64,000 nucleotides of DNA from Alphaproteobacteria bacterium (GTDB lineage: Bacteria > Pseudomonadota > Alphaproteobacteria > RF32 > CAG-239): assembly GCA_017546315.1 (NCBI GenBank), contig JAFYXH010000007.1, positions 14,508 through 78,507 on the forward strand, written 5' to 3'. The notes under the pieces were generated by a model. That model was not told the DNA's origin and did not search any database. It saw nothing but the letters and a program-made list of their open reading frames with translations. Made by a program: the position numbers and the translations under genes. The first letter of the stretch is position 1; each line of letters opens with the position of its first letter. Positions 6,295 to 60,886 of this stretch are shown one piece after another.

Positions 6295-6295
6295 T

Positions 6296-8305
6296 ATGGC
6301 GGGTGTAGAGTTTAATGGTGGTAAAAAAAATATGATTAGGGTTAATATTATGAGAAAAGTTAAGTTAGTTTATTTTTGTTTGTTGTTGTGCGCAATGTTG
6401 GGTGCAAATACTTCTAATGTTGAAGCTGGTGATTTCGATTTTGCAGTGGAAGAATGGGTGGATGAAGAAGTAGAATTAGAAGATGATGTTCTTGCTGATG
6501 AAGAATATGAAGAAGTTGTTGAAGAAGTAGAAGAGTTTGAAGATGAGGGAAATAAGCCAGAGTTTATTCCTGAAGGTGAGATTGATGAGGGGGCTCCTGT
6601 TGCTATTTCTCGTAAAACATCAAAAGTGGTTGGTTCTAAAGAGCTTTTTGATAAGTTAAAATATGGGCAGAAAATTCGTATGGATGATGTTGAGGGGTGG
6701 TTGTTTAATACGTCTGATGTTAATGAATGTCTTGAAAATGGTAAGACTATGTTATTACAGATGGTGGCTTATTCCTCGAATATTGAGGCTATTGCATTGT
6801 TGATTGATCATGGAGCAATATTGGCAACTACTTGTCAGCCTAATTATAATGCTTTATTTGTGGCGGCTCAGAACAATAAATCTCCGGCTGTGGTTGATTT
6901 GTTGATTACTAAAGGTGCTGATATTGTGGTGGAGGATTATGAAGGAAATACTGCTCTTAGTGTGGCGGCTGCTTCTAATCCTAGTGGTGGTGTTGTTGAG
7001 ACATTATTGGAATATGGGTTAAAGATTAACAAACCAAACAAAAGAGGACATACTCCTTTGATGTTGGCGGCTTTTAAGAATGATATTAAAGTTGTTAGAG
7101 AATTATTGAAAAATGGGGCGAATGTTAATCTGGAAGATAAGAATGGTAGGACTGCTTTGATGGCGGCTGCTTTGAGAGGTGATGATGATATTATGCAACT
7201 TCTTATTAAGCATGGGGCTAATTTTAAGGTAGTTGATAAAAACAAAATGAGTGTTCTTGATTATTATAATAAAAATAAATACTTAAAAGATGAAGCATAT
7301 ACAGAAAATAAATACGCTTCTATATCTGAAGTTCTTGAATATCGATATGGGTATGTGAGTGATAATCACTATAAATATAATAAAGATTTAAGAGATGCAG
7401 TGTTTGATGATGAAGCTGAAGCAAAAGTTGATGAAGCGATTAAGAGATTGGCAGATATAAATTCTTTGGATGAATATGGGTGTACCCCTTTGATAAACGC
7501 TGCTCGTAATGATAAATCTTTGAAAGTATTTGAATTGTTGGTTGAAGGTGGGGCGGATGTTAATGCTAGTTGTTTAGAGAAAATTACTCCGTTGATGTTT
7601 GTTTCTACACTTGCGCAAGATAAAGAGCGTGCTAAAGTGGCTATTGAAAAGTTGAAATTGTTAAATGATTATAAGTTAGATATTGACTTAGCAGATGAGG
7701 GTGGAAATACTGCTTTGATGTATGCTTTACAATCAGGGGCTAATATCAATTTTGTGGCTAGTTTGCTTGCGTTGAATGCGGATGTTAATGTAGTTAATAA
7801 GCGAGGTGAAACTCCACTTTGGATTGCGGTTAAACGTAATTTGGGTATAAAGATTATTGAGATGTTAATAGAGTTTGGGGCAGATGTTAATGCTAAAGCT
7901 TTAGATGGTGAAACAATTTTGTGGCATATGTTAAAAAATGGTGAGAGTTCTGAGAAAATTGTCTTGTTGCTTGAGAGCGGAATAGATACATCTGTTGTTA
8001 ATCCAACTGGTAAAACTCCTCTTTGGTATCTTCTTCTTAATGGTGGTAGGGCTGATATTTTGAACGCTTTGATTAAGTTTGAGAAAAATCTGAATGAGCC
8101 TAATGCTGTTGGTGATACGCCGTTGTTGTTTGCAGTTAAGAATGATTATCCGGCTGAGATTATTAAATCTATGCTATATTATGGGGCAGACCCTGAAATG
8201 CGTGATGCTAATGGTATGAATACTATGGATATTATGTCTCAAAATCGCTTCTTTGATATGACAATTAAAGAGCAAACAAGGGCAAAAGTTCTTAATCAGT
8301 GGTGA
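6296..8305 (+). CDS. ankyrin-repeat protein with signal peptide and acidic linker
   Basis: Signal peptide MRKVKLVYFCLLLCAMLGANTSNVEA (true start may be the ATG at 6332 or 6350); acidic stretch EEWVDEEVELEDD...EEVEEFEDE; many canonical ANK repeats (G-TPLM-AA-G---V-LLL--GA-VN). Confidence 0.8.
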   Translation: MAGVEFNGGKKNMIRVNIMRKVKLVYFCLLLCAMLGANTSNVEAGDFDFAVEEWVDEEVELEDDVLADEEYEEVVEEVEEFEDEGNKPEFIPEGEIDEGAPVAISRKTSKVVGSKELFDKLKYGQKIRMDDVEGWLFNTSDVNECLENGKTMLLQMVAYSSNIEAIALLIDHGAILATTCQPNYNALFVAAQNNKSPAVVDLLITKGADIVVEDYEGNTALSVAAASNPSGGVVETLLEYGLKINKPNKRGHTPLMLAAFKNDIKVVRELLKNGANVNLEDKNGRTALMAAALRGDDDIMQLLIKHGANFKVVDKNKMSVLDYYNKNKYLKDEAYTENKYASISEVLEYRYGYVSDNHYKYNKDLRDAVFDDEAEAKVDEAIKRLADINSLDEYGCTPLINAARNDKSLKVFELLVEGGADVNASCLEKITPLMFVSTLAQDKERAKVAIEKLKLLNDYKLDIDLADEGGNTALMYALQSGANINFVASLLALNADVNVVNKRGETPLWIAVKRNLGIKIIEMLIEFGADVNAKALDGETILWHMLKNGESSEKIVLLLESGIDTSVVNPTGKTPLWYLLLNGGRADILNALIKFEKNLNEPNAVGDTPLLFAVKNDYPAEIIKSMLYYGADPEMRDANGMNTMDIMSQNRFFDMTIKEQTRAKVLNQW

Positions 8306-36542: not shown

Positions 36543-36671
36543 AAAAATTGGTTTTCATAATCTTTTATTATATTTGACAAATAAAGTCAATATATTTTTA
36601 TTTTTGTGATAAATAGCTTGATTTTTATTTATTTAGTTGTAGTTTTTATTGAAAATTATATCGGAGGTCGC

Positions 36672-37460
36672 ATGAGAAATTTTGGATTAAAACTTTGGAC
36701 AAAAGATTTTGTTAAAAATATTGAGTTTGTTAATGATGCTGAAAGAGCAATAAAAGAAGGTAAATTTGATTATTTAGAGTTGTTTGCCCTTCCCTTGAGC
36801 TATGATGAAACTTATGAAAGTGTTTTGAGCAAATTTGGAGGTGTGAAAGTTATTATACATGCACCTCATGGATTGCAAGGTCTTGATATTTCTGATAAAA
36901 ATGAATTTGAAAACAATAAAAAAAGAATTGAAGATGCGCAAAGATTTGCAGATTTGTTGGAGGCTTCTTTTATCGTGCTACACCCAGGGATGAATGCTGG
37001 TGAAGAATTTTTAGAGGAAAGTATTAGGCAATTTGGATTGTTTAATGATAAAAGATTAACTGTTGAAAATTTACCATCATATTGTTCTCAAACAAAACGG
37101 TTATTACATGGAATTAAGCCTTCTGAAATAAAGCGCTTTATTGATGAAGTTGGGTGTCCTTTTTGCCTTGATTTTTCACACGCAATTTGTGGCGCAAATA
37201 GCTGTAATATCGATATTTATGAGTTTTTAGATGAGATGAAAGCTCTTAATCCTTCTATGTATCATTTGTGTGATGGAGATGTGAATTCTTTAAATGATAG
37301 CCATCTTCATTTTGGTGAGGGAGATTATGATTTAAGAAGATTAGTGCTTGAATATACTAAGGAAAATGCCCTCATCACAATGGAAACAGGGCATGGAATT
37401 CCAAATAGTGTTCAACCTTGGATTTCTGATATAAATTACATCAGAAATGTTATTTCTTAA
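36672..37460 (+). CDS. sugar phosphate isomerase/epimerase (xylose-isomerase-like TIM barrel) family protein
   Basis: Pattern of His/Glu/Asp-bearing strands (IHAPHG, VLHPG, LDFSHA) typical of AP endonuclease 2/xylose isomerase-like fold; RBS ggagg before the ATG at 36672. Confidence 0.5.
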   Translation: MRNFGLKLWTKDFVKNIEFVNDAERAIKEGKFDYLELFALPLSYDETYESVLSKFGGVKVIIHAPHGLQGLDISDKNEFENNKKRIEDAQRFADLLEASFIVLHPGMNAGEEFLEESIRQFGLFNDKRLTVENLPSYCSQTKRLLHGIKPSEIKRFIDEVGCPFCLDFSHAICGANSCNIDIYEFLDEMKALNPSMYHLCDGDVNSLNDSHLHFGEGDYDLRRLVLEYTKENALITMETGHGIPNSVQPWISDINYIRNVIS

Positions 37461-38521
37461 GATGTTATCTCTTTAATTAAGTTTGGTATAGAGGTTATTT
37501 TTACCGGATTTGACTTCATATTTGAGGTATATATTGCTCTGTTTTGATAAACTTTGTCTAATGCCGGAAATAATATTTCTGGGTTGTCGATATTTTCGTC
37601 AGCAATCAATTCTGCGTAGCCTTTTTGGACAAAACTCTTGGCATTTAGAGTTTGCTCTCCTCTTGAAGAAGTATTTGGAAGAGGAACGAGTATCATTGGT
37701 TTATTTAGGCTTGCTAATTCAAATATAGAATTTGAACCGGCTCTAGAAATTACGACATCTGCTAATGCTAATAAATCTTTTAAATTGGTATCAACGTATT
37801 CATATTGAGCATAGCCATCTCTTTTTATATCTGGATTATAACCATTTTTCCCTGAGATATGAATTATTTGGTATGTTTTTAGCAGTTGATCTAGGTTATT
37901 ATATACCGCATTGTTTAAGCTTTGTGCTCCTAAGCTTCCTCCGATTACTAAAATAGTTGGTTTATTGGTGTTTAGATTGCTAAATTTAGCCCCCTCTTCT
38001 TTTGAGCCGTTAAACAATCTATCCGATAAGGCAGGACCTATGTATTTTACTTTATGTTTTTGTTTTACTTTGTTAATTGTCTCTTCAAATGTGGTGAAAA
38101 AAGTATTAACAAATGGTAGGCTTAGCTTGTTTGCGAGCCCTGGAGTTAGATCTGATTCGTGCATATAAATTTTTTTGCGATTGATAAAACCGCCTACCAC
38201 TACTGGAAATGATACAAATCCACCTTTTGAAAAGATAATGTCTGGGTTTAATTTATGTACTAAATATATAGCTTGTAAGCATCCAAATGGAATTTTTATC
38301 ATATCAATAAAATTTTGCCATGAAAAATAGCGACGGAGTTTTCCTGTGGTGATTGAGTGATAATAAACGTTGTTTAGATTTTTTATGAGATCTTTTTCCA
38401 TGCCATTGTGCGAACCAATGTAATGAACTTCCCATCCTTGTTCTAAAAAGCTTGGTATTAGGGCTAGATTTAAGGTCACATGCCCTGCTGAGCCACCTCC
38501 GGTGAAAATTATTTTTGGCAT
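37457..38521 (-). CDS. murG: GT28 glycosyltransferase closely resembling Gram-positive (streptococcal-type) MurG
   Basis: N-terminus IIFTGGGSAGHVTLNLALIPSF..GWEVHYIG..., HSITTGKLRRYFSWQN, SKGGFVSFPVV, HESDLTPGLANK align nearly block-for-block with Streptococcus MurG; 3 bp downstream of rmuC. Confidence 0.7.
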   Translation of the reverse strand: MPKIIFTGGGSAGHVTLNLALIPSFLEQGWEVHYIGSHNGMEKDLIKNLNNVYYHSITTGKLRRYFSWQNFIDMIKIPFGCLQAIYLVHKLNPDIIFSKGGFVSFPVVVGGFINRKKIYMHESDLTPGLANKLSLPFVNTFFTTFEETINKVKQKHKVKYIGPALSDRLFNGSKEEGAKFSNLNTNKPTILVIGGSLGAQSLNNAVYNNLDQLLKTYQIIHISGKNGYNPDIKRDGYAQYEYVDTNLKDLLALADVVISRAGSNSIFELASLNKPMILVPLPNTSSRGEQTLNAKSFVQKGYAELIADENIDNPEILFPALDKVYQNRAIYTSNMKSNPVKITSIPNLIKEITS

Positions 38522-38524
38522 ATT

Positions 38525-39898
38525 TTAGTCTCCATCTTGAATTAAAAATGTAGTATTTTCTAATAGTAAATCGTTATCACTTAAGGTTAGGTTAATTGTT
38601 TTATTGGTTTTTGAGCCTAGTAGGCGCATTTTTTCTGCATGAGAAAGTGCTGAGCCTTTGCCTTGGAGTTTAGTCATAGCGTTTCCATAAGCATTAGATG
38701 CTTGAGTTAGAGCTCTATCAATTGCTTTCATATCATCAATAAAACCTGCTAGTTTATCGTATATTTTTCCGCCTAATTCAGCTATTTTTTGCACATTTTG
38801 ATTTTGACTATCGATTCTCCATAAGTTTTCTACGGTTCGTAAAGTTGGTAGAAGTGATAATGGGGTTGCAAGGATAACGTTTTTCTTATAAGCATAATCA
38901 TAGATGTGATTATCAAGTTCTAAGGCTGCGATATATGCACTTTCTACGGGGATGAACATTATTACATAATTTAGAGATGTGTCTTTTAGTAGTTTTTGAT
39001 ATTCTTTTGATGATAATTCATCAATATGTGATTTTATATCTGAAAGGTTCTTTTGAAGATATTTAAGGCTTAATTCGGTGTCATCGGTATTGGTTGCATC
39101 TAAATATGCATTGAGTGATACTTTGGAGTCGATAATTATATCTCGATTATCAGGGAGATGTATGATAACGTCTGGACGATAGATCTTTTTATTATCATTA
39201 GTAAATGTTTTTTGAGTTTCATAATCTTGATCTTTGCGTAGACCTGAAATTTCTAGAATGCGAGATAATTGACATTCGCCCCAATTTCCTTGTGCTTTGC
39301 TTGCACCTTTTAAGGCTGAGGCAAGGTTTTGCGCATCTTGGCTTAGGGTTTTATTTAGGTTTACTAAATTTGAAAGCTGAGTATCTAGGCTTGATTTGTT
39401 TTTTATGCTTTCGGTTCTTGCTAAATTTACCTCATCCTTGAAGGCGGTTAGTTGTTCTTTGAATGGATTTAAGATTTGAGATAAAGAGTTAAATTGAGAT
39501 TTTGAAAAATCTTCATGTTGTGATTTGATTACTTCGGTTGAGATGTCTTTAAATTTTAGAGTTAAATCTTCTTTTATTTTTTCTAGGTATGTGATTTTTT
39601 CTTGAAGTGCTTCTTCTTTAGCGAAAGATGAGGCTTTGATTGCGGAAAGAGAATTCTCAGCACTACGAAGCGAATCGGATAATTGTTGTTTTTCATTCTG
39701 GAGAGAATTGAGCATATTATCTTGAAGGTGTAGCTTTTGATTGATGAGGATGTATTCTTTTTCTAAAAGCGAATAATTGTTGGTTGTTTTTTTGAGTTTG
39801 TTTTTATTTTTTATGTTTAGGATTGATAGAGTTATGGTTGATATGGTTAATAGAGCAATAATTGCTATGATATAGTGAGTTTGATATAGTATTGTCAT
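38525..39898 (-). CDS. rmuC: DNA recombination protein RmuC
   Basis: N-terminal TM helix, long coiled-coil, C-terminal RmuC nuclease-like region. Confidence 0.75.
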   Translation of the reverse strand: MTILYQTHYIIAIIALLTISTITLSILNIKNKNKLKKTTNNYSLLEKEYILINQKLHLQDNMLNSLQNEKQQLSDSLRSAENSLSAIKASSFAKEEALQEKITYLEKIKEDLTLKFKDISTEVIKSQHEDFSKSQFNSLSQILNPFKEQLTAFKDEVNLARTESIKNKSSLDTQLSNLVNLNKTLSQDAQNLASALKGASKAQGNWGECQLSRILEISGLRKDQDYETQKTFTNDNKKIYRPDVIIHLPDNRDIIIDSKVSLNAYLDATNTDDTELSLKYLQKNLSDIKSHIDELSSKEYQKLLKDTSLNYVIMFIPVESAYIAALELDNHIYDYAYKKNVILATPLSLLPTLRTVENLWRIDSQNQNVQKIAELGGKIYDKLAGFIDDMKAIDRALTQASNAYGNAMTKLQGKGSALSHAEKMRLLGSKTNKTINLTLSDNDLLLENTTFLIQDGD

Positions 39899-40168
39899 GA
39901 GCGCCTTCTTTGTTTGATTCTAGATAAAAGAGCATAGATTTGTTTTTGTTTTTTAGCAATAGTTTTAAGTATTTTATTATTTTTTTAGTAAAAATCACTT
40001 TTTTCTGCATTATATATAAAATATTATATATTAGAATGAAAAATCATAGCGTTAATACAAAAATTGATAAAATTTATCTTGATTTTTTTTTAATAGTTGT
40101 GTATTTGTGTGTTAAGCGAGAAGTTATTTACTTCTTTAATTGACGGTTTAATAAATAAAGGAGGAATT

Positions 40169-40960
40169 ATGACTTCTATTATCACAGAAAACGGATATAA
40201 AAATGGTGTTGGATTTTTTGATAGAGTATCCAAACAAATTGTAATCAAGCATCCTTGCGTTAGAAAAAAAGAAGCACAAGAAGTGTTTGCTTGGATTGAA
40301 GAGGCTAAGACGACGGGGTTGAAATCTTTTATCGTTGGCGTTGGAATGATGGATAACTTCCTTGATTGCAATGAAGAAGATAATATTTATAACGTTTCTA
40401 GAGAGTTGGTTAGAGGTGTTGTTGAAAAAACTAAAAGTGTTGAAGCTGCTTTTTTGCTTGAGGTTTTAGTTAGACTTGATAAATGTGCAGAGCTTGAAAA
40501 ATTGAGTTTAAAATGCGTTGGTTTTAATGAACATCCTGCTGTTTTTGAAATGTTGTTAAAAAATATTAGAGTATTGAAAAGTTTAAGATGTTTAGAGTTA
40601 AACGGTTCTTTCTTTGGAGCTGAGCAATTGGTTGATTTGGCTGATTTTGTTAGCAGAACATCTATTGCAAGAATTGTTTGGCCTGAAGTTCAATTAGATG
40701 AAGATGTTGTTAGTATTATTGCACGTAAATTTGATGAGAATATTGCTTTAGTTGATGCAACTTTTGCACCACTTGAGCTTCGTAAAATTGCAAAGAGAAA
40801 TAGACGTAGATTTTTTAAATTTATGTATAATTCAATGAGTTTATCTGAGGAAGATGTTCGTTTGATTAAAGAATATAAAGATTCTGCTTATTATGCGTTG
40901 AATTATGAATATCAAAAGCTTGCTGATATGAATAAAACTTTGGGCGGTATTTTAGTTTAA
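40169..40960 (+). CDS. leucine-rich-repeat (ribonuclease-inhibitor-type) protein, eukaryote-like
   Basis: Repeating L..L.L..C.L......L..LL..N ~28-aa units (LEVLVRLDKCAELEKLSLKCVGFNEHPAVFEMLLKNIRVLKSLRCLELNGSFF); RBS aaggagg before the ATG at 40169. Confidence 0.6.
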   Translation: MTSIITENGYKNGVGFFDRVSKQIVIKHPCVRKKEAQEVFAWIEEAKTTGLKSFIVGVGMMDNFLDCNEEDNIYNVSRELVRGVVEKTKSVEAAFLLEVLVRLDKCAELEKLSLKCVGFNEHPAVFEMLLKNIRVLKSLRCLELNGSFFGAEQLVDLADFVSRTSIARIVWPEVQLDEDVVSIIARKFDENIALVDATFAPLELRKIAKRNRRRFFKFMYNSMSLSEEDVRLIKEYKDSAYYALNYEYQKLADMNKTLGGILV

Positions 40961-41042: not shown

Positions 41043-42044
41043 TTATTTCTTAAGAGATTCCTCAATGGCAACAGCAACAGCAACAGTTGCACCTACCATT
41101 GGGTTATTTCCCATACCGATCAATCCCATCATTTCTACGTGAGCAGGAACTGATGATGAACCAGCAAATTGCGCATCACCGTGCATACGCCCCATTGTAT
41201 CAGTCATACCGTAAGAAGCAGGACCTGCAGCAACGTTATCTGGGTGAAGAGTTCTACCAGTACCACCACCTGATGCTACTGAGAAGTATTTCTTACCATG
41301 TTCCATAGCCCATTTTTTGTATGTGCCAGCAACTGGGTGTTGGAAGCGAGTTGGGTTTGTTGAGTTACCAGTAATTGATACATCAACACCTTCCTTAATC
41401 ATAATAGCAACACCTTCTGATACATCATCTGCACCATAGCATTTTACTTTTGCTTTGTCGCCATTTGAGAATGCTTTTTCGTGAACGATTTTGAGTTCAC
41501 CTGTGGTATAATCATATTCTGTTTCAACAGCTGTAAAACCATTGATACGAGAAATGATGTATGCAGCATCTTTACCCAAACCGTTTAAGATAACACGAAG
41601 AGGTTCTTTTCTTACTTTGTTTGCAGAGCGTGCAATACCAATTGCGCCTTCTGCTGCAGCAAAAGATTCGTGTCCGGCTAAGAAGCAGAAGCATTTTGTT
41701 TCTTCTCTTAACAGCATTGCAGCAAGATTACCATGACCAAGGCCTACTTCACGTTGGTCAGCAACTGATCCTGGTACGCAAAATGCTTGCAAGCCAATAC
41801 CGATTTTCTCAGCAGCTTCAGAAGCATTCTTTACGCCCTCTTTCAATGCAATCGCACAACCTAATGTGTATGCCCATACAGCATTTTCAAAAGCGATTGG
41901 TTGAATGCCTTTAACTAGCTTTTCTACATCTATACCATGTGATGTGCAAAGAGCTTTTGCTTCGTCTAAATCTTTGAAACCATACTTAGCAAGAACTGGA
42001 GTGATGGTGTTTATTCTTCTATCATATCCTTCAAATTGTTGCAT
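41043..42044 (-). CDS. GGGtGRT-family protein
   Basis: Contains the eponymous SGGGTGRT motif; 333 aa, glycine/alanine-rich. Confidence 0.7.
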   Translation of the reverse strand: MQQFEGYDRRINTITPVLAKYGFKDLDEAKALCTSHGIDVEKLVKGIQPIAFENAVWAYTLGCAIALKEGVKNASEAAEKIGIGLQAFCVPGSVADQREVGLGHGNLAAMLLREETKCFCFLAGHESFAAAEGAIGIARSANKVRKEPLRVILNGLGKDAAYIISRINGFTAVETEYDYTTGELKIVHEKAFSNGDKAKVKCYGADDVSEGVAIMIKEGVDVSITGNSTNPTRFQHPVAGTYKKWAMEHGKKYFSVASGGGTGRTLHPDNVAAGPASYGMTDTMGRMHGDAQFAGSSSVPAHVEMMGLIGMGNNPMVGATVAVAVAIEESLKK

Positions 42045-42047
42045 GGC

Positions 42048-42752
42048 TTATTCCTTTCTTGGATCTATTTTCTTTACGGCATCTTCGAAACGTCCGTAAG
42101 TCTTGATATTGTTTTCAAGAGCTGTTTTAGCGTCTGTACCGTTGCGGATTGCTTCCATCATTTTGCCAAGGTGAACAAACTTGTATCCGATGATTTCGTT
42201 GTTTTCATCAACGCCGATTTCCAAAACATAGCCTTCAGCCATTTCTAAATAGCGTGGACCTTTTACTTTTGTAGAATACATTGTTCCAACTTGTGAGCGT
42301 AAACCTTTACCTAAATCTTCAAGACCTGCTCCAATTGGTAAACCATTTTCAGAGAAAGCTGTTTGTGTTCTACCATATACGATTTGAAGGAACAATTCTC
42401 TCATTGCAACGTTGATTGCATCACAAACTAAGTCTGTGTTTAATGCTTCAAGAATTGTCTTTCCTGGTAAGATTTCTGCGGCCATAGCAGCTGAGTGTGT
42501 CATACCTGAACAACCAATTGTTTCAACCAAAGCTTCTTCAATAACACCTTCTTTTACGTTGAGTGTTAGTTTGCAAGTACCTTGTTGTGGGGCACAGCAA
42601 CCGCAACCGTGTGTTAAACCTGAGATGTCTGAAATTTGTTTAGCTTTTACCCATTTTCCTTCTTCTGGAATTGGAGCTGGTTCGTGTCTTGCACCTTTGT
42701 ATAGTGGACACATTTGCTCAACTTCGTGTGAGCATTGATGATTACATGCCAT
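42048..42752 (-). CDS. NifU/IscU-like iron-sulfur cluster scaffold-domain protein, partner of the GGGtGRT protein
   Basis: IscU-like block ETIGCSGMTHSAAMAAEILPGKTILEA and an upstream Cys cluster (GCGCCAP); 3-bp spacing to the GGGtGRT gene. Confidence 0.6.
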   Translation of the reverse strand: MACNHQCSHEVEQMCPLYKGARHEPAPIPEEGKWVKAKQISDISGLTHGCGCCAPQQGTCKLTLNVKEGVIEEALVETIGCSGMTHSAAMAAEILPGKTILEALNTDLVCDAINVAMRELFLQIVYGRTQTAFSENGLPIGAGLEDLGKGLRSQVGTMYSTKVKGPRYLEMAEGYVLEIGVDENNEIIGYKFVHLGKMMEAIRNGTDAKTALENNIKTYGRFEDAVKKIDPRKE

Positions 42753-53801: not shown

Positions 53802-53892
<91 letters not shown>

Positions 53893-53936
53893 GTTGTTTT
53901 GTTTTAATAAAGTTTTAAGAAATATCTTTAAAGCAA

Positions 53937-53962
53937 AAATCCCCAAAATATGGGGATTTTTT
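53937..53962. terminator. bidirectional hairpin terminator between the tRNA-Ser and the convergent minus-strand gene
   Basis: atcccca/tggggat stem with an A-run 5' and T6 3'. Confidence 0.6.
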
Positions 53963-53963
53963 G

Positions 53964-54599
53964 TTATTCCACTTTGTATTCTTTTTCAAAAAATACATCC
54001 ACTACAATTTTTTCGTTTAAGAAGTAGTATTTCTTGATTTTCAAAGTGATTTTTTTCTTTTCGATAAGCACATCATAATCGAAATGGAGATAATTATCCC
54101 CATTGAGGCTTTCAACACCACCTATTAGCATATCCTTATACTCGGTATATTTTTTGCCATAGGATACTTCGCCGAAAAGAAATGGTTCGTCATAACATTT
54201 CTTATTTTTCCAACCGTTGAGGGCAGAATAAGTTAGAACATTTACGACAGGAACTTCGTAAGCTGTTGTGAAGCTTCCATCTGATTGCAACGAATAGCTG
54301 TGATCATGAATATAGTCAACAACGTTTGCACCGGTTTTTGCCTGAAACTGCACATCAACTACGACTAGCTCTGAACCTGTCCAATGAAATAGCGTTCGGC
54401 AATCATCTGTTTGCAACCAAATGCGAGATGAAGCAAAGTAATCATTTACATCATCACTAACAGCTAAGATTTCACCTTTGTGCCAAATATTTTCTACTTG
54501 GATGTCAGTTTGAACTTCAGCTTTTGGCTCGTTAATCACTTGTGCTTGGAGCACCACAGCACTTACGATCATAATGATCATAAAGAAAAATCTCTTCAT
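53964..54599 (-). CDS. secreted hypothetical protein
   Basis: Signal peptide MKRFFFMIIMIVSAVVLQAQV (start taken at the internal ATG 54599; the ORF track extends to 54674). Confidence 0.5.
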   Translation of the reverse strand: MKRFFFMIIMIVSAVVLQAQVINEPKAEVQTDIQVENIWHKGEILAVSDDVNDYFASSRIWLQTDDCRTLFHWTGSELVVVDVQFQAKTGANVVDYIHDHSYSLQSDGSFTTAYEVPVVNVLTYSALNGWKNKKCYDEPFLFGEVSYGKKYTEYKDMLIGGVESLNGDNYLHFDYDVLIEKKKITLKIKKYYFLNEKIVVDVFFEKEYKVE

Positions 54600-54725
54600 A
54601 ATAATAAGATTTTTTTGTTCAACATAAATATAGTTATCAGTAACAAACGTGTAGTATTTTTGTTTATTTGTCAATATGTTTTTTTAGATATATTTTTCAC
54701 ATAATTTGTTTTTAGATTTTGGATT

Positions 54726-54768
54726 TAAAAAAAAGATCTGAAACTTGAATGTTTCAGACCTTTTTTCT
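54726..54768 (-). terminator. intrinsic terminator
   Basis: agatctgaaac/gtttcagacct hairpin with T-runs on both strands. Confidence 0.6.
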
Positions 54769-55007
54769 TAGTGTTTAGAGTGCTCTACTCTAGTACTTTT
54801 TTGCGAATGCCCACAATTTCTCTTTTGATCAAAACTCTTGGATTTAGAGGATGAACAATCACAATGTTTGGGGCTCTCTTGTTTTTGTGAAGACTTTTTC
54901 TTTTCATCTTCATTGGCATCACTTTCTGGAACAAAGAAGTGATACACTCGTATCGGAAAAGATAAAAAAGTTCCGACTACGTAAGATACATAATTCTTTT
55001 CGTCCAT
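54768..55007 (-). CDS. small hypothetical protein (79 aa), serine/lysine-rich C-terminus
   Basis: ORF between two terminator hairpins; no known motif. Confidence 0.35.
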   Translation of the reverse strand: MDEKNYVSYVVGTFLSFPIRVYHFFVPESDANEDEKKKSSQKQESPKHCDCSSSKSKSFDQKRNCGHSQKSTRVEHSKH

Positions 55008-55080
55008 AATTGTTATTTAAATAATAAGTTTTCTAGGAGTATTTTAGGCTTATGTGAGTAAGTGTCAATAACGATATTAA

Positions 55081-55110
55081 AAAAGACCACCATAAAATGG
55101 CGGTCTTTTT
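55081..55110 (-). terminator. intrinsic terminator of the 55113-55841 gene
   Basis: aagaccacc/ggcggtctt hairpin plus T6 on the minus strand. Confidence 0.6.
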
Positions 55111-55112
55111 TA

Positions 55113-55841
55113 TTAGAGCTCTTCAATTTCTCCGTACTTTATGTTGTTAATATCTGAAAGATTTGTAATTTCTTTAGATAACAACAACTTCCAGCGGGTT
55201 GATGAAATTCTTTTGCGTTCTGTTCCATCAATGTTGTATATGATATAACCATGAGTGTTAATATCTTTTTTTACAACATAAAATGTGGAGTTTGTTCCTT
55301 GTTTGTCTTTTAATAATACAACATCCTTTGCATTTATGCGCCATAGTCGATTTGCTTGACTATCAAAAAACGAAATCTTGTGCATATCAAGCAAACATAA
55401 TACTGTTGGCGTTTGAAATACTCTTACAGGCACGACAAAGCTTTTGGTTTTGGGAAAATAATAATACTTTTGGAAATGAGAAGTCCCAAGATAGTAAGTA
55501 TTTGCATTATCTTCCGTTTTGATGTCTATAAAAGTATCAAAACTCATACCTCCGATAGGTGTTCCTTGATGATTAAAAACTAATATCCTATTGTTTTGGC
55601 AAATTGCCTTGATGATAAAACTATCAACTTCAAAGGATTTATAATCACCTGCGTGCAGAATTATTTCTCCGGTTGCTTTTTGCTTGACACCAATTCGTGT
55701 TCCTTCGTTATACGAGATTAACTGCTCGTTTAATGAGAAATTTTCAAAAGATGCGGTGTTTGACTTTGAATTATTAAAAAGAACAAAATATGCACCAACT
55801 GCTAAAGATAGTGCAATGGCAAAAAATAATATTTTTTTCAT
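55113..55841 (-). CDS. secreted hypothetical protein (242 aa)
   Basis: Signal peptide MKKILFFAIALSLAVGAYFVLF; no recognisable domain. Confidence 0.5.
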   Translation of the reverse strand: MKKILFFAIALSLAVGAYFVLFNNSKSNTASFENFSLNEQLISYNEGTRIGVKQKATGEIILHAGDYKSFEVDSFIIKAICQNNRILVFNHQGTPIGGMSFDTFIDIKTEDNANTYYLGTSHFQKYYYFPKTKSFVVPVRVFQTPTVLCLLDMHKISFFDSQANRLWRINAKDVVLLKDKQGTNSTFYVVKKDINTHGYIIYNIDGTERKRISSTRWKLLLSKEITNLSDINNIKYGEIEEL

Positions 55842-56018
55842 AACTTTATAGGGTTTTACATAATTATTTATTTATCTTGGGCAAGAATAGCAATAATTTT
55901 ATTTAATTGCAAGCGTTTTATCCAAAAAAGACAAAAAACATCAAAAAAAGCTGATTAACCTTATTTTTACTTTTAAAAATATATAGTGATGGTATAATTT
56001 TATGTAGAGAGGTTCTTT

Positions 56019-57083
56019 ATGTCTCGTGCCGAAGATATTTTTGAAAAACTAGTTTATTTTGGCGAAGATGCTATTGATGAGTTTATATTAAATCGCCAAA
56101 CAGAAGAGTTGTTTATGGATTTTAAGCAAGCAGTTTCTGATGGTAAATGTATGAGAGCACTTCATCAAAACGACAGAAGAAATTTGGCAAAAGCAATATC
56201 TGCTTTTGGCAACTCTGAAGGTGGTGTTTTGGTTTGGGGTGTTGAGTGTGCAAGAGATGTTGAGCTTGGAGATGTTGCGCAAGCAAAGGTTAAGGTTAAA
56301 AATGTTCATAGATTTTTGAGCTGGCTTGAGGGGGCAATTTCTGGATGCACAATTCCTTCTCATAATAAGGTTAGAAATCATATAATTTCGGTTGATAAAA
56401 ATGGTGATGGTTTTTTGGCTACTTATATTCCTAAATCGGATATTGCGCCACTGATGACAACAAGTGGAAGTCAAGTTTATATTAGGTCTGGGTCTAACAA
56501 TGTGCCTGCACCCTATTCTGTTATTGCGGGAATGTTTGGCCGACGTCCTCAACCCAATATTGAGATGGTTATTGATAATAAGATGATCGAAGTGGCGAAA
56601 GAAAATGAAGATGATATTTTTAGACCACTTAAGAAAAGTAGTAAAAAAGAGAGTGTGGTTAAGGTTCGATTTTCGCTATTGGCTGAGAATAACTCTAATG
56701 CTATTGCTAAGGAAGTATTTTTATCTTGCAATACCTTGAGTGTGGGGGGAGATAAGAATAAGGTAAACTTTTATTATGATTCTCAATTAGAGAACTTAGC
56801 GTCCATGCATAATTCTATTAACCTTATAACTCCGATTGAAATGCGTATTCCACCTAGGGCATTGTTTAGTTGTGCTAAGGCAGAAATTAGATTTTACAAT
56901 GATATTTCAGAAGATTTTTTGATGGAAGGTGTTATTGGAGCTGAGGGGAGCATTCCTAAGAGTTTTAGAATTTCTATATCTAAGAATGATTTACGCTCTT
57001 TTGTGGCACAAGCTTTGAAGAAAAATGCTAATTTAGAAGTTCTGACAAATGAGTTTTTTTCGGAGTATTTGAATAGCGAGTAA
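56019..57083 (+). CDS. AlbA_2 (Schlafen-like putative DNA-binding) domain protein
   Basis: N-terminal block EELFMDFKQ...AISAFGNSEGGVLVWGVE matches the AlbA_2/divergent-AAA signature (E..L.FK ... AFAN..GG.L..GV). Confidence 0.5.
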   Translation: MSRAEDIFEKLVYFGEDAIDEFILNRQTEELFMDFKQAVSDGKCMRALHQNDRRNLAKAISAFGNSEGGVLVWGVECARDVELGDVAQAKVKVKNVHRFLSWLEGAISGCTIPSHNKVRNHIISVDKNGDGFLATYIPKSDIAPLMTTSGSQVYIRSGSNNVPAPYSVIAGMFGRRPQPNIEMVIDNKMIEVAKENEDDIFRPLKKSSKKESVVKVRFSLLAENNSNAIAKEVFLSCNTLSVGGDKNKVNFYYDSQLENLASMHNSINLITPIEMRIPPRALFSCAKAEIRFYNDISEDFLMEGVIGAEGSIPKSFRISISKNDLRSFVAQALKKNANLEVLTNEFFSEYLNSE

Positions 57084-57137
57084 TTTGTTTAATGGTTTAG
57101 AAATAACAAAATAAATAAAATATATAAAGGAAATAAA

Positions 57138-57578
57138 ATGAAAAGAGTTGAGATTTTTACTGATGGGGCGTGTTCTGGCAATCCTGGTGCTGGCGGATGG
57201 GGTGCGATATTAAGATATAATGATGTTGAAAAAGAATTATCAGGTGGAGAAGCTGAAACAACCAACAACCGCATGGAGTTAACGGCGGTTATTAGTGCTT
57301 TGGAAGCTTTGAAGGAAAGTTGTAATATTACTCTTTATACTGATAGTCGCTATGTGATGGATGGTATTGAAAAGTGGATTTTCCAATGGAAGAAAAATGG
57401 ATGGAAAACATCTAATAAAAAAAGCCCAGTAAAGAATGTTGAGTTATGGCAAAGATTAGATGAGTTAAGAAGTCGTCATGAAATTAGATGGGTATGGGTT
57501 AAAGGGCATGCTGGCCATAAAGAAAATGAAAGATGTGATGAATTGGCTCGAATGGAAGCACAAAAGTTTAAAAATTAA
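57138..57578 (+). CDS. rnhA: ribonuclease HI
   Basis: [47 protein letters not shown]: canonical RNase H active-site blocks. Confidence 0.9.
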
Positions 57579-57659
57579 CTAAAAAGACTGTTTTTTACTT
57601 GAGTTTGTATGTGTTTTATGATATAATTTGTTTAAGTTTAGCTTTTAATGGAGGGGGGA

Positions 57660-60600
57660 ATGAATAATAATAAAAATAATTCCTTTAATAGTGAAAGAAG
57701 TGCACTAATATTTGATTTTTTAAAAGAAGTAAATAGTGCTATACGCAGTGTTAACTCTAATAAAAATAATGATGATATTTACAAATTGTGGGATGTAATC
57801 TACCATGCAGCAGCGTTAAACGATATTAACGGTGATATAAGCAGTTTTGTTTTGGATAAAGTTAAGGAATTGGGTTTATTTAACAAAGAAGAAGAAAAGA
57901 AATTTGAAGAAAAATTAATTCCTTGGGGTGAAAAAAATAATAATAAATATAATGAACTTAGAGAAAGAAGGAATAAAGAAGGCGAAGACAACTTTAATAA
58001 TAATTTGTTCTCCAGAACTCTTTATGATAAATCTTTTTCAAATGTGCAACAAAGTGAAATTTATAGAGCTTCTGTTGATGCTATGTTTGAGCAATATAAA
58101 GGTGAAAAACAGGTAAACCTTACTGATGTTTTTATGGAAAATATTGAAAAAAGCGGTAAATTTAATGATGAAGAAAAGAAAAAGTTGAAAGAATTTTCGT
58201 TACAATCCGAAGAAGCTGTAAAGAATGTGGAAAAACTTTCCGAAGATATGAAAAAACACTTTGATGAAAAAATAAAATTTGAGAACGGGATTAACGGATC
58301 GAAAAATAAAAATAACAATATGAAGCAAAATGATTATTATGATGGGTTTGATAGTGTATTGTTTGACAAGGTGTATTCGGATAAATCTTTTTCCGGCGAG
58401 CAAAGGGGTAAAATTATTCTAGCTTCTATGGATGCTATGTATGCGCAATACAAAGATGGTAAACAAGTAAATCTTACTGAAGTTTTTATGGAAAGTATTG
58501 AAAAAAGCGGTAAATTTAATGATGAAGAAAAGAAAAAACTGAAGGGTTTTTCTTTGGAGGCTGCTGAAAAGGTAAAGGACATAGATAAAGTTCCGGAGCG
58601 ATTGGTAAAGAATTTTGAAAAAGCACTCAAATTTGAAGAAGATTTAAAAAAGATGAATAATATTAACAAAGCTAATGCTTTGAATGGTTCGGAATATAAT
58701 CCCAGTGATGAAATTAAGAAACAAAAAGAAGAGTTGGAGAAATTAAGAGCCGAAGGTGAAGCTAGGGATAAAAAATGGCGTGAAGAGCAAAAAGCAAAAG
58801 ATGAAGCATGGGCGGAAAAAAATAAATCATCAAATCAGGCTATTAACGATATGTCTTTTATAGGACTTGCTATTACGTCTCCTTCATTGGCTAGCATGCC
58901 TCCAATGCAAAGAAATTTTATATATAGTGAAATAAATAGCTTGATGGAACAGTTAAAAGATAATGGGCAGCTTAGCAAAAGAGCTGATGTGTTATTAAAA
59001 GAAAGTATTGTCAATAATAAAGAGTTTAGTCAATATGATAAGGATTTTGCTTTTAAGTGTATTGAGCAATATGACAATTTATTTAAAAATGATGAAAGAC
59101 CGGGGTTTGTTGCTAAAAAAGAAACCCAAGCTAACGCTTCTAAAATTACTGAAACGACAAATCAAAATACTGAGAAAAATGCTTTATCTGAATATATAGA
59201 AAGTGCTCGTAATAAAATGATCAAAGAAAAAGCTCCTACGGGTTTTGCATACATCATTTTGTGTGATATGGATAAAAATCCTAATATCAGTAAAGAAACC
59301 AAAGATATGTTTTTGAATATGGCTATTAAGAGTAGTAAAGAAATTCAAAATCAAGGTTTAAAGATGACAACTGATGAAGGAGTTTATGCATTTGCCGAGG
59401 TCTTAAGTAAAAAGATAAAAGAAAATAAAGAGTTTGGAGAAAAAGGTTTTGAGATAGTTAAAGATATTATGAAAAATGGAGAATCTTTCAACAAAATGTT
59501 ATTTGCTAAAGAAGTGAAAAACATAGTGTTGAACCTTGGTAATGATAATCAGACAAAGACAGATAAAAAAGAAGAAATCAAAAACGATAATAAGCCAATA
59601 GAAGTGAATAAAGAGATAAAAAGACCTGAAACTCCTAAAACAGAAAAAACTGAGATGGAAGCTAAATTAGAGCGTGTAGAAAAATCAGATGAATATAAAA
59701 ATCTTATCAACTCGGGTAATTTTAATGATGCTCAAAAAGATGCTATAAAACTTGATATGGCTAAAAAACTTAAATCTGAATATTTTGAAAATGCTAAAGA
59801 TAAAATAAAAAAAGAAAACGCTTCAATTGGTTTTGCATATATGATACTTGCTAGCATGGATGAGAACCCAAAGATTAGCCAAAAAACTAAAGATGTTTTT
59901 TTGAATATGGCGATTAAATGTAGCAAAGAGATAACAGCCGAGGGATTGAAGATGTCTTCTCCTGAAGGTATGCGAGCAATGGCTGAAAAAATCTCCAAAG
60001 AGATGAAAGAGAATAAGGAGTTTGGTGATGAGGGATTGAAAGCTATTGTAGATACCTTTAACAATGGCAAAGCGATAAATAGTTTATCTTATGCAGATAA
60101 GTTAAAGGATTTTGTTTTTAAGAGATTAAATATTAGTGATGATGCTTCTAAACAAATCAATCAAGAAACAACAGGACTTAAAGAAACAATAGAAAAGAGT
60201 GGAAAACAAACAGAAAGTATCACCCAATTAAAGAATGAAAAAAATGAAATAAAAGAAAAGCCTGTTGAAGAGATTTTGGTTGATAAAATAATCCGAAATG
60301 GGAGTTTTTCTAAAGAAGCACAAAATGAGATATTAAATATTGCGATAGAAATTGAACAAGCAAAACTTAAAAGTGAAACTGATAAAAATAAAACAACATC
60401 AGAAGCTTTTATGGATAAAGTTATCAATAGTGATAAAATTAGTGACAAAGAAAAAGATGAATTGCTTAAAATGTCTATAAAGACAGAAAATAAGGAAATT
60501 GAAAAAACTGAAGGCGGGAAAAGGCTTTATTTTGATGAGAATAAAAAGGAGCGATTTGACCAATTAAAATTAAGTGATAAAGCATTAGAAAGTTTGGAAG

Positions 60601-60809
60601 CTAAAGTTGAAAATGGCAAATTTTCGGTAAAAATACCTGAAAATGATGAGATAAAAAAAGAAGTTATTAGAAGTATTAAAGTGCAAGAAGGCATTGAAAA
60701 TATCAGAAATGCTAAGAGAGATGAAAAAGCAACAGAAAGTAAGCCTACTTTTGACAACAATATGACTACAAATATGGCTAAATTTATGGCATCTCATAAT
60801 CAGCGATAA
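57660..60809 (+). CDS. giant repetitive lysine/glutamate/asparagine-rich hypothetical protein (paralogue A, ~1050 aa) with internal duplications and a shared C-terminal module
   Basis: RBS ggagggggg before the ATG at 57660; two pairs of internal ~60-90-aa direct repeats (KQVNLT(D/E)VFME(N/S)IEKSGKFNDEEKKKLK; GFAY(I/M)IL..MD.NP.IS..TKD.FLNMAIK); the last ~185 aa are similar to the C-terminus of the next gene. Confidence 0.6.
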   Translation: MNNNKNNSFNSERSALIFDFLKEVNSAIRSVNSNKNNDDIYKLWDVIYHAAALNDINGDISSFVLDKVKELGLFNKEEEKKFEEKLIPWGEKNNNKYNELRERRNKEGEDNFNNNLFSRTLYDKSFSNVQQSEIYRASVDAMFEQYKGEKQVNLTDVFMENIEKSGKFNDEEKKKLKEFSLQSEEAVKNVEKLSEDMKKHFDEKIKFENGINGSKNKNNNMKQNDYYDGFDSVLFDKVYSDKSFSGEQRGKIILASMDAMYAQYKDGKQVNLTEVFMESIEKSGKFNDEEKKKLKGFSLEAAEKVKDIDKVPERLVKNFEKALKFEEDLKKMNNINKANALNGSEYNPSDEIKKQKEELEKLRAEGEARDKKWREEQKAKDEAWAEKNKSSNQAINDMSFIGLAITSPSLASMPPMQRNFIYSEINSLMEQLKDNGQLSKRADVLLKESIVNNKEFSQYDKDFAFKCIEQYDNLFKNDERPGFVAKKETQANASKITETTNQNTEKNALSEYIESARNKMIKEKAPTGFAYIILCDMDKNPNISKETKDMFLNMAIKSSKEIQNQGLKMTTDEGVYAFAEVLSKKIKENKEFGEKGFEIVKDIMKNGESFNKMLFAKEVKNIVLNLGNDNQTKTDKKEEIKNDNKPIEVNKEIKRPETPKTEKTEMEAKLERVEKSDEYKNLINSGNFNDAQKDAIKLDMAKKLKSEYFENAKDKIKKENASIGFAYMILASMDENPKISQKTKDVFLNMAIKCSKEITAEGLKMSSPEGMRAMAEKISKEMKENKEFGDEGLKAIVDTFNNGKAINSLSYADKLKDFVFKRLNISDDASKQINQETTGLKETIEKSGKQTESITQLKNEKNEIKEKPVEEILVDKIIRNGSFSKEAQNEILNIAIEIEQAKLKSETDKNKTTSEAFMDKVINSDKISDKEKDELLKMSIKTENKEIEKTEGGKRLYFDENKKERFDQLKLSDKALESLEAKVENGKFSVKIPENDEIKKEVIRSIKVQEGIENIRNAKRDEKATESKPTFDNNMTTNMAKFMASHNQR

Positions 60810-60886
60810 TTTGTTTTTTGCTTGTTTTTGAGTTATAAATATGGTATATTTTTAAGCATATATGATGCTTAAAATCGGAGGGATGA

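Follow-up and report, generated by a model that had tools for sequence, protein, structure and literature searches.

MurG is a peripheral-membrane glycosyltransferase of the GT-B type that transfers GlcNAc from UDP-GlcNAc onto lipid I, yielding lipid II. The canonical murG gene typically lies between ftsW and murC in the dcw cluster, a location that is not strictly defining. In Staphylococcus aureus (CP051994.1) murG is found outside the dcw cluster, 265 kb from mraY, as the only MurG-like gene of that record, and its neighbours encode a GNAT acetyltransferase and a phosphatase of the PAP2 type. Lipid II synthesis has been demonstrated with the purified S. aureus enzyme, which murgocil targets (PMC5039524). 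Another lipid II synthase encoded away from the dcw cluster is MurG2 of Kitasatospora viridifaciens and Streptomyces, which co-exists with canonical MurG and occurs in 38% of genomes (bioRxiv 10.1101/2020.10.12.336396). Among Proteobacteria, Legionella carries a genus-wide MurG-type gene outside the dcw cluster, between nadC and an M20 peptidase gene and near mreBCD, whose product reaches 440 bits against NF009102, the profile of the Gram-positive-type (Staphylococcus/Streptococcus) MurG. Extra copies of the same type (NF009102 at 566-596 bits) are found in Bacillus and Anoxybacillus, where they are accessory and lie amid cell-wall polymer or murF/ddl genes. One such copy, on a conjugative MOBP plasmid of Bacillus mycoides, lies among LCP and UDP-GlcNAc 4,6-dehydratase genes, another is carried by an Anoxybacillus plasmid, and three MurG-like places are present in the single chromosome of Bacillus sp. 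N5-665. The plasmid-borne copies indicate that genes of this type are mobile. Since extra copies occur on plasmids and in a Bacillus chromosome, NF009102-type membership alone is no proof that a protein is the sole MurG of its host.

The locus analysed here is part of a 64-kb stretch of alphaproteobacterial DNA (hereafter the window), in which a GT28 gene identified from the ORF list, Pfam and NCBIfam as murG (354 aa; 37457..38521, minus strand) is the second gene of a pair. The first, rmuC (457 aa; 38525..39898, minus strand; PF02646, 322 bits), encodes the DNA recombination protein RmuC. ORF coordinates and direct reading of the sequence agree that murG begins 3 bp downstream of rmuC, as an earlier sequence-only reading of this DNA had noted. 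The TAA stop of rmuC occupies 38527-38525 and the murG ATG 38521-38519, leaving a spacer of 3 nt (aat, 38524-38522). Within this junction (38522..38533, minus strand), a GGAG at 38533-38530 is contained in the final rmuC codons, 8 nt 5' of the murG ATG. Downstream, the unit is limited by a convergent gene (36606..37460, plus strand), which encodes a xylose-isomerase-like TIM barrel (AP_endonuc_2, PF01261) and overlaps murG by 4 nt, 3' end to 3' end. Upstream, an AT-rich intergenic region (39899..40096, minus strand) is the candidate promoter region of the pair; it contains a sigma-70-like match at 40070-40043 (9/12), of a kind whose frequency is not above shuffled expectation. An internal murG promoter and a terminator between the two genes were also considered and rejected, as the pattern scan gave no excess over the shuffled background. 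Given the 3-nt spacer, the Shine-Dalgarno sequence in the 3' end of rmuC, the lack of any terminator-like site in a pattern scan of 37000-40400, and the retention of the pair in every relative (intergenic distance -11 to +3 nt), rmuC and murG are very probably co-transcribed, as had been proposed, and are probably translationally coupled.

By family, the window protein is a Gram-positive-type MurG. It scores 410.3 bits against NF009102/PRK12446 (NCBIfam cutoff 339) in an end-to-end alignment, with residues 2-352 on profile positions 2-349 of 352. Its alignment with S. aureus MurG spans 338 aa, contains 3 gaps and shows 48% identity. In contrast, it falls below the cutoff of the canonical MurG model TIGR01133, which represents the dcw type of Proteobacteria and Bacillus (215.7 versus 250.25 bits) and against which the MurG of the Sphingomonas dcw cluster scores 273 bits. 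S. aureus MurG has the same length, motifs and score pattern (425.6 bits for NF009102, 244.7 bits for TIGR01133). Identity to the E. coli, Pseudomonas aeruginosa and Acinetobacter baumannii enzymes is 22-27%, and to the Sphingomonas dcw MurG 23.5%. The sequence-only reading was therefore right both in likening the protein to Gram-positive MurG, all of its quoted motifs being present (among them the blocks KIIFTGGGSAGHVTLNLALIPSFLEQGWEVHYIG, HSITTGKLRRYFSWQN, SKGGFVSFP and HESDLTPGLANK), and in setting it apart from the proteobacterial one. The two GT28 halves are recognised by Pfam (PF03033, N-terminal, 107 bits; PF04101, C-terminal, 119 bits), and each of the 45 aligned lineage members matches NF009102 (E <= 1e-10; best 3e-130).

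A GT-B fold with acceptor and UDP-GlcNAc GT28 domains is predicted for the window MurG. Its AF2 model (pLDDT 89.4) retrieved MurG chains as the best six PDB matches in Foldseek (E 5e-21 to 1e-18), the next GT-B protein following at 2e-13. Canonical MurG structures (E. coli 1F0K/1NLM, P. aeruginosa 3S2U, A. baumannii 7D1I) share this fold with a TM of about 0.75-0.8, along with the GGSxGA, RxGAxTxxE and Q..NA motifs and the catalytic His of the first G-loop, whereas the canonical HEQN and GHVFP are replaced by HESD and GHVTLNL. Conservation across the 45 lineage members is complete or at least 90% for GGGxxGH, GKLRRY, SKGGFVxxP, HESDxxxGLAN, GGSLGA, RAGSNxIFE and SRGEQxLNA. These motifs are common to about 64 cluster representatives from outside the lineage and to S. 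aureus MurG, and those of the UDP-GlcNAc site are also common to P. aeruginosa MurG. Each donor- and acceptor-site motif held in common with S. aureus MurG is invariant, as are the G-loops of the N-domain and the basic-aromatic GKLRRYFS patch across the clade, and the only motif changes relative to the S. aureus enzyme are conservative (for example SRGEQ for SRGDQ). These features lead us to predict that the murG product is a working lipid II synthase.

Our phylogeny reveals that murG is foreign to Alphaproteobacteria. In neighbour-joining trees of MurG homologues, the alphaproteobacterial sequences are monophyletic in 100/100 bootstraps and nested among Bacilli, which bears out the earlier proposal of horizontal acquisition. 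A Streptococcus-like group is their sister in 71-74/100 bootstraps, followed by S. aureus; the references for S. pneumoniae and B. cereus in these trees were sequences entered by hand. To our knowledge, the Bacilli around the alphaproteobacterial clade have an NF009102-type protein as their sole MurG. The closest relatives outside the lineage are from Clostridia and Bacilli, at 44-50% identity. The Bacillus and Anoxybacillus extra copies (45-47% identical to the window MurG) group with B. cereus MurG2, apart from the clade, and MurG2 of Kitasatospora and Streptomyces belongs to an actinobacterial branch. The Legionella protein is 44% identical to the window MurG and its gene has no rmuC linkage; because the tree does not make it the sister of the alphaproteobacterial sequences, it probably represents an independent acquisition. 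The clade itself comprises MAGs of uncultured Alphaproteobacteria from gut and rumen, a lineage that we take to be the GTDB order RF32, and a CcrM-type N6_N4_Mtase+RAMA gene in the window is consistent with an alphaproteobacterial host. In GC and GC3, murG does not differ from the adjacent genes, and skew also matches the flanks. Taken together, the acquisition appears ancient and from a Bacilli-like donor. A joint transfer of rmuC and murG from a Firmicute was rejected, as rmuC adjoined murG in 0 of about 85 Firmicute loci.

The gene is fixed across the sampled lineage, and the operon junction is conserved with it. Homologues numbered 120, at 59-99% identity, and murG was present in all seven subclades, always with rmuC. 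The pair was found in 22/22 related loci having upstream DNA, in at least six distinct neighbourhoods, and in every comparison among related loci RmuC was less conserved than MurG. Neighbours otherwise vary among subclades, with AnmK, SIR2 or mnmA in the slot downstream of murG, and rmuC is the sole constant one. The 'paralogue' label of the sequence-only reading was an interpretation for which we found no support. That reading had named two observations, that relatives carry the same type and that this is the only murG of the genome, as pointing to lineage-wide displacement and not a new function; the first is what we found. The lineage also has genes that imply a need for MurG, namely mreBCD-pbp2-rodA, 1.4 kb from the pair in one subclade (locus L008), a PBP5-type carboxypeptidase gene (L104), and AnmK in two loci (L014 and L024). 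Recent horizontal exchange was separately considered for a GGGtGRT/NifU-like gene pair with 98-99% protein identity between species and was rejected, since nucleotide identity is just 85-88%, pointing to strong purifying selection.

We searched for a second murG and for the dcw cluster using seed proteins validated on the Sphingomonas cluster (locus L112), where, unlike in the window, murG lies among dcw genes. Confirming that the gene is away from cell-wall genes, none besides murG was detected in the window by Pfam and NCBIfam (30 of the 45 ORFs of at least 150 aa), and of FtsZ, MraY, MurC and the full Sphingomonas dcw set only murG was matched there by tblastn. The E. coli and Sphingomonas dcw proteins, run by tblastn against 114 loci, revealed no dcw gene in lineage DNA; none lay within 10 kb of murG in any related locus, at the loci sampled from reachable subclades, or at the left edge of the window. 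Across the window and locus L108, together some 75 kb of this genome, and across a few hundred kb of related lineage loci, neither a second MurG/GT28 gene nor a dcw gene was present. Outside the window, the DNA covered came in pieces of some 20 kb surrounding the genes looked up, and the whole amounts to a fraction of one genome. An exact 8-mer peptide scan of genome contigs yielded 13 loci, 7 of them alphaproteobacterial; in a metagenome contig scan with a lineage-only alignment, 2/80 loci came from the lineage and the rest were mostly Firmicute MurGs. We found no description in the literature of the cell-wall genes of this lineage or of murG displacement.

The explanation we favour, and hold to be rather likely, is that of a Bacilli-type MurG, anciently acquired and functional, that has probably displaced the dcw murG: a known enzyme in an unexpected host. 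The ancestor of the gut and rumen lineage would have acquired the gene once, from a Bacilli-like donor, by insertion directly behind its resident rmuC. It would since have been inherited vertically, its composition now being fully adapted to the host. Its message would be the rmuC transcript, on which it comes second, and its translation is probably coupled to that of rmuC, which would account for the two genes never having been parted. The native murG of the dcw cluster would then have been lost, and the acquired copy is most likely its replacement, supplying most or all of the lipid II synthase activity of the lineage. The closest parallel is S. aureus, whose murG is also outside the dcw cluster, although that host is a monoderm and the present one a diderm with LPS genes (kdsB in the window; PagP, KdsA and LpxA in related loci).

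An alternative, which we consider unlikely if plausible, is that a canonical dcw murG persists and that the acquired gene encodes an additional lipid II synthase, either redundant or specialised, used for example in elongation or under particular conditions. There are precedents for such an arrangement in the plasmid-borne and chromosomal extra copies of Bacillus and Anoxybacillus, including the three places in Bacillus sp. N5-665 and those of the Bacillus cereus group, and in MurG2 of Kitasatospora and Streptomyces, a distant MurG paralogue documented to be able to substitute for MurG (bioRxiv 10.1101/2020.10.12.336396); the proximity to mreBCD-pbp2-rodA in one subclade would also fit this reading. 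However, accessory paralogues are usually patchy, as with MurG2 at 38%, whereas all sampled subclades have the present gene, and its product has diverged less than RmuC. Furthermore, the clade nests with the sole-copy enzymes of Bacilli and not with the group of plasmid copies and B. cereus MurG2, and the sampled lineage DNA contains no second GT28 gene. We give still less weight to a related scheme, in which a canonical dcw murG is kept, the second GT28 is non-redundant, either as a specialised lipid II synthase or acting on another acceptor, and the strict coupling to rmuC reflects co-regulation of envelope synthesis and a function in DNA recombination or repair.

More improbable again is a neofunctionalised GT28 whose acceptor is not lipid I, as the sequence-only reading had suggested. 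Such an enzyme would transfer GlcNAc, or a different sugar, to the LPS core, to a glycolipid or to some further polyprenol-linked intermediate, for instance. The position of murG outside any cell-wall cluster had been taken as a pointer in this direction, yet S. aureus murG is likewise far from its dcw cluster. The LPS genes nearby or in relatives, the B. mycoides plasmid copy among LCP and UDP-GlcNAc 4,6-dehydratase genes, and a weak sequence similarity to diglucosyl-DAG synthases could be read in the same way. That similarity amounts to 24.6 and 21.3 bits against the UgtP/YpfP glycolipid synthase models NF010134 and NF010135 (diglucosyl-DAG synthase), far under their cutoffs of 557 and 500, while the MurG cutoff is well exceeded, and the variable neighbours in the lineage are never glycolipid or LPS-core genes. 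With motifs that match those of the validated S. aureus enzyme save for conservative changes, and with G-loops and GKLRRYFS patch invariant, a substrate other than lipid I finds no support, and we regard the protein as most likely the ordinary MurG of the lineage rather than an enzyme of new function. Lastly, an artefact, with Firmicute DNA wrongly assembled or binned with an alphaproteobacterial contig, is conceivable in that gut Firmicutes inhabiting the same samples provide the nearest named relatives beyond the clade. This reading has a negligible probability and is refuted by the recurrence of the rmuC-murG junction in independent ENA, JGI, Logan and NCBI assemblies (contigs up to 546,902 bp), where alphaproteobacterial genes flank it on both sides, GC, GC3 and skew match the flanks, and Firmicute identity is at most 50%.

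The finding places a known kind of enzyme in an unexpected host, and no fundamentally new biology is involved. If displacement is true, peptidoglycan synthesis in a whole order-level lineage of gut Alphaproteobacteria depends, at an essential and normally very conservative step, on an import from Bacilli, expressed from a DNA-recombination operon rather than from the dcw cluster. In practical terms, marker or pathway calls that use the TIGR01133 HMM alone would miss murG in these genomes, and MurG inhibitors tuned to one type of the enzyme may show unexpected spectra. Together with the genus-wide case in Legionella, our analysis suggests that the textbook picture of the dcw cluster understates how exchangeable MurG is between monoderms and diderms.

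The window (G+C ~33%) carries rmuC and murG as tandem open reading frames on the minus strand, RmuC being a 457-aa protein (38525–39898; Pfam PF02646, 322 bits) and MurG a 354-aa GT28 protein (37457–38521; PF03033 and PF04101). The rmuC stop codon (38527–38525) and the murG ATG (38521–38519) are separated by 3 nt, with GGAG lying 8 nt 5′ of the ATG within the final rmuC codons, and the 3′ end of murG overlaps a convergent TIM-barrel gene (36606–37460) by 4 nt. Across 37000–40400 a pattern scan found no terminator-like hairpin, and promoter-like matches were in no excess over shuffled expectation. The tandem position behind rmuC described in the sequence-only reading is confirmed by the gap and the Pfam assignments, every motif quoted there was found in the 354-aa ORF, and the proposed co-transcription stands as very probable, as the short spacer and lack of a hairpin suggest.

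The best 120 homologues listed from a large protein collection share 59–99% identity and span 354–378 aa, except two of 386 and 490 aa. The named ones, from gut and rumen samples, are labelled 'MAG: Alphaproteobacteria bacterium', 'uncultured Rhodospirillales bacterium' or 'uncultured Acetobacter sp.', and a CcrM-type methyltransferase (N6_N4_Mtase and RAMA domains) encoded in the window also suggests an alphaproteobacterial host. At a 72% identity threshold the homologues form seven subclades, six of which were sampled for context. rmuC lies immediately 5′ of murG in 22/22 related loci with upstream DNA (14 distinct proteins, that of the window not counted), at a spacing of −11 to +3 nt, and all other neighbours vary between subclades: thrS...hflX, as in the window; hfq-hflX, then rmuC-murG-SIR2; gyrA...rmuC-murG-mnmA-metK; rmuC-murG-rplQ adjoining rodA-pbp2-mreDCB; uvrB/autotransporter-rmuC-murG-mnmA; and rmuC-murG-SIR2-uvrD. 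The simplest reason for this sole invariant adjacency would be that murG expression depends on rmuC, whose promoter would drive both genes and whose translation would be coupled to that of murG. Since none of ~85 Firmicute loci has rmuC near murG, the two genes became linked in the recipient. In every comparison MurG is better conserved than RmuC (e.g. 79 versus 73%, 65 versus 51% and 61 versus 48%).

A SIR2-family gene overlaps murG at its 3′ end by 8 nt in three divergent subclades, so that rmuC, murG and SIR2 form one unit (related loci L004, 11058–11768; L104, 5211–5924; L107, 3305–4012), and in another group (L005, L009, L016, L017) mnmA directly follows murG. In two close relatives (MurG identity 71–74%) the slot of the TIM-barrel gene is held by the convergent gene for AnmK, an anhydro-MurNAc kinase of peptidoglycan recycling (L014, 11064–12407, minus strand; L024, 1391–2866, minus strand).

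The window protein passes the Gram-positive (Bacilli) MurG model NF009102/PRK12446 (410.3 bits; NCBIfam cutoff 339) and fails the canonical model TIGR01133 (215.7 bits; cutoff 250.25), and NF009102 is matched by 45/45 aligned relatives (E ≤ 1e-10). S. aureus MurG, with the same score pattern, aligns at 48% identity over 338 residues with three gaps. The scores are reversed for an alphaproteobacterial dcw MurG, that of Sphingomonas from its complete mraZ...ftsZ cluster (TIGR01133, 273 bits; NF009102, 81 bits), which is 23.5% identical to the window protein; the solved MurG structures, all proteobacterial (E. coli, P. aeruginosa, A. baumannii), match it at ~22–27% identity (E 1e-17 to 6e-24). 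An AlphaFold model built on an alignment of 45 relatives (pLDDT 89.4) has MurG chains as its six top PDB matches, other GT-B enzymes following seven orders of magnitude behind, and 102 columns are invariant among 45 lineage sequences, every catalytic and binding motif included. The protein belongs to an established, curated family, and these MAG proteins already carry the name MurG at NCBI.

Outside the clade the nearest sequences (44–50% identity) belong to Clostridia and Bacilli, namely Lachnospiraceae, Hungatella, Christensenella, Staphylococcus, Bacillus and Anoxybacillus. In our trees, all neighbour-joining, the alphaproteobacterial MurGs are monophyletic (100/100 bootstraps) and sister to a Streptococcus-like clade (71–74/100), and S. 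aureus branches off next; the copies carried on Bacillus and Anoxybacillus plasmids fall elsewhere, as does B. cereus MurG2. Database records supplied the sequences of S. aureus, Legionella, Bacillus, Anoxybacillus and Sphingomonas, whereas S. pneumoniae MurG, B. cereus MurG2 and E. coli MurG were entered by hand; the S. pneumoniae entry is 69% identical to P0141, a database representative of a 593-member cluster that includes one sequence from a possibly complete genome (a 1.92-Mb contig). The earlier assignment to a Gram-positive-like rather than proteobacterial type was correct, and a foreign origin holds. As murG has the GC (0.337) and GC3 (0.265) of its neighbours and the clade is monophyletic, the transfer was old and single. 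Gut Firmicute loci from metagenomes (L026–L103) encode Firmicute-type MurGs at 42–52% identity, and none has MraY, MurC or FtsZ in the available murG flanks, which extend for up to 10 kb per side and on some contigs for far less; a location of the NF009102 type away from the dcw cluster thus seems to be common among gut Firmicutes as well.

The lineage encodes mreBCD-pbp2-rodA, a PBP5-type carboxypeptidase and AnmK; it clearly makes and recycles peptidoglycan, and therefore needs a MurG. No FtsZ, MraY, Mur ligase, FtsW/FtsI (besides RodA/PBP2) or second GT28 protein was found in the window, the 10 kb to its left or the related loci; the dcw queries detect the Sphingomonas cluster at 46–53% identity, and the E. 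coli MraY query matches E. coli records at 100% identity. Scans of a genome-contig and a metagenome-contig collection likewise yielded no dcw locus of the lineage. In the Bacilli among which the clade nests, the NF009102 type is the one essential MurG known. Since the gene is universal in the lineage, strongly constrained and nested with such Bacilli, we consider it probable that it displaced the native dcw murG. S. aureus offers a precedent, its sole MurG-like gene in a 683-kb record lying 265 kb from mraY. Displacement is not certain, as accessory copies occur: a Bacillus chromosome has three MurG-like genes, one of NF009102 type, and such genes are found on an Anoxybacillus plasmid (near murF, a vanG-like ddl, a DedA protein and a polysaccharide deacetylase) and a Bacillus mycoides conjugative plasmid (among LCP and UDP-GlcNAc 4,6-dehydratase genes, IS elements nearby), evidence that such genes can move and at times are accessory. 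Actinomycetes, too, have a documented case of a functional second MurG (bioRxiv 10.1101/2020.10.12.336396). That the acquired MurG co-exists with another as a second enzyme nevertheless seems unlikely. A change of acceptor away from lipid I is very improbable. The sequence-only reading is partly supported: it keeps its foreign origin and co-transcription, but its 'paralogue with another substrate' found no positive support.

Conserved residues suggest how the enzyme would work. Homology with S. aureus MurG and with the structures solved from E. coli and P. aeruginosa points to UDP-GlcNAc binding by the C-domain motifs GGSLGA, RAGSNSIFE and SRGEQTLNA. Binding of the membrane and of the lipid I diphosphate would fall to the N-domain G-loops GGGSAGH, SKGGFVSFP and HESD, together with the basic-aromatic stretch GKLRRYFSWQNF; the predicted product is lipid II.

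Elsewhere in the window, a GGGtGRT protein (PF14057, 654 bits) and an adjacent NifU-like 234-aa protein (41043–42752, minus strand) match their counterparts in related species (L012, L013) at 98–99% protein identity, against 75–87% for flanking genes. Recent transfer was rejected on a nucleotide identity of just 85–88%; the pair is under extreme purifying selection. Plus-strand GC skew is strongly positive (0.2–0.54 in 2-kb windows) over most of 1–64000, and ~0 or lower at roughly 15–17 and 41–47 kb, where genes lie on the minus strand; it therefore seems to track the coding strand. A tRNA-Ser(CGA) (53802–53892) marks the edge of a lower-GC stretch (28–34% across ~48–64 kb) with a Schlafen/AlbA_2 protein (56019–57083) and two very large ORFs of 1053 and 984 aa, the former with no Pfam match. 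The window's first ORF is recorded in the assembly collection and its last is not; 53802–63841 may be a strain-specific island. At 3760–8305 (plus strand) an 844-aa ORF with no family match precedes a 669-aa ankyrin-repeat protein (nine Ank_2 stretches), and a second ankyrin protein adjoins a zeta-toxin gene just left of the window in the same strain (L108, 12227–13969). Ankyrin proteins are typical of host-associated bacteria and uncommon in free-living ones.

In the searchable literature we found no description of a Bacilli-type MurG that is lineage-wide in gut Alphaproteobacteria or linked to rmuC. Legionella likewise has a Gram-positive-type MurG (NF009102, 440 bits) outside the dcw cluster, in L. 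adelaidensis between nadC and an M20 peptidase gene, ~2 kb from mreBCD (L111, NZ_LR134431.1, 7992–9062), and in many other species at 64–100% identity (P0351–P0470). In the neighbour-joining tree the Legionella enzyme does not group as sister to the alphaproteobacterial MurGs, and its acquisition was apparently independent. A Bacilli-type MurG in Proteobacteria is therefore not unique to the gut Alphaproteobacteria.
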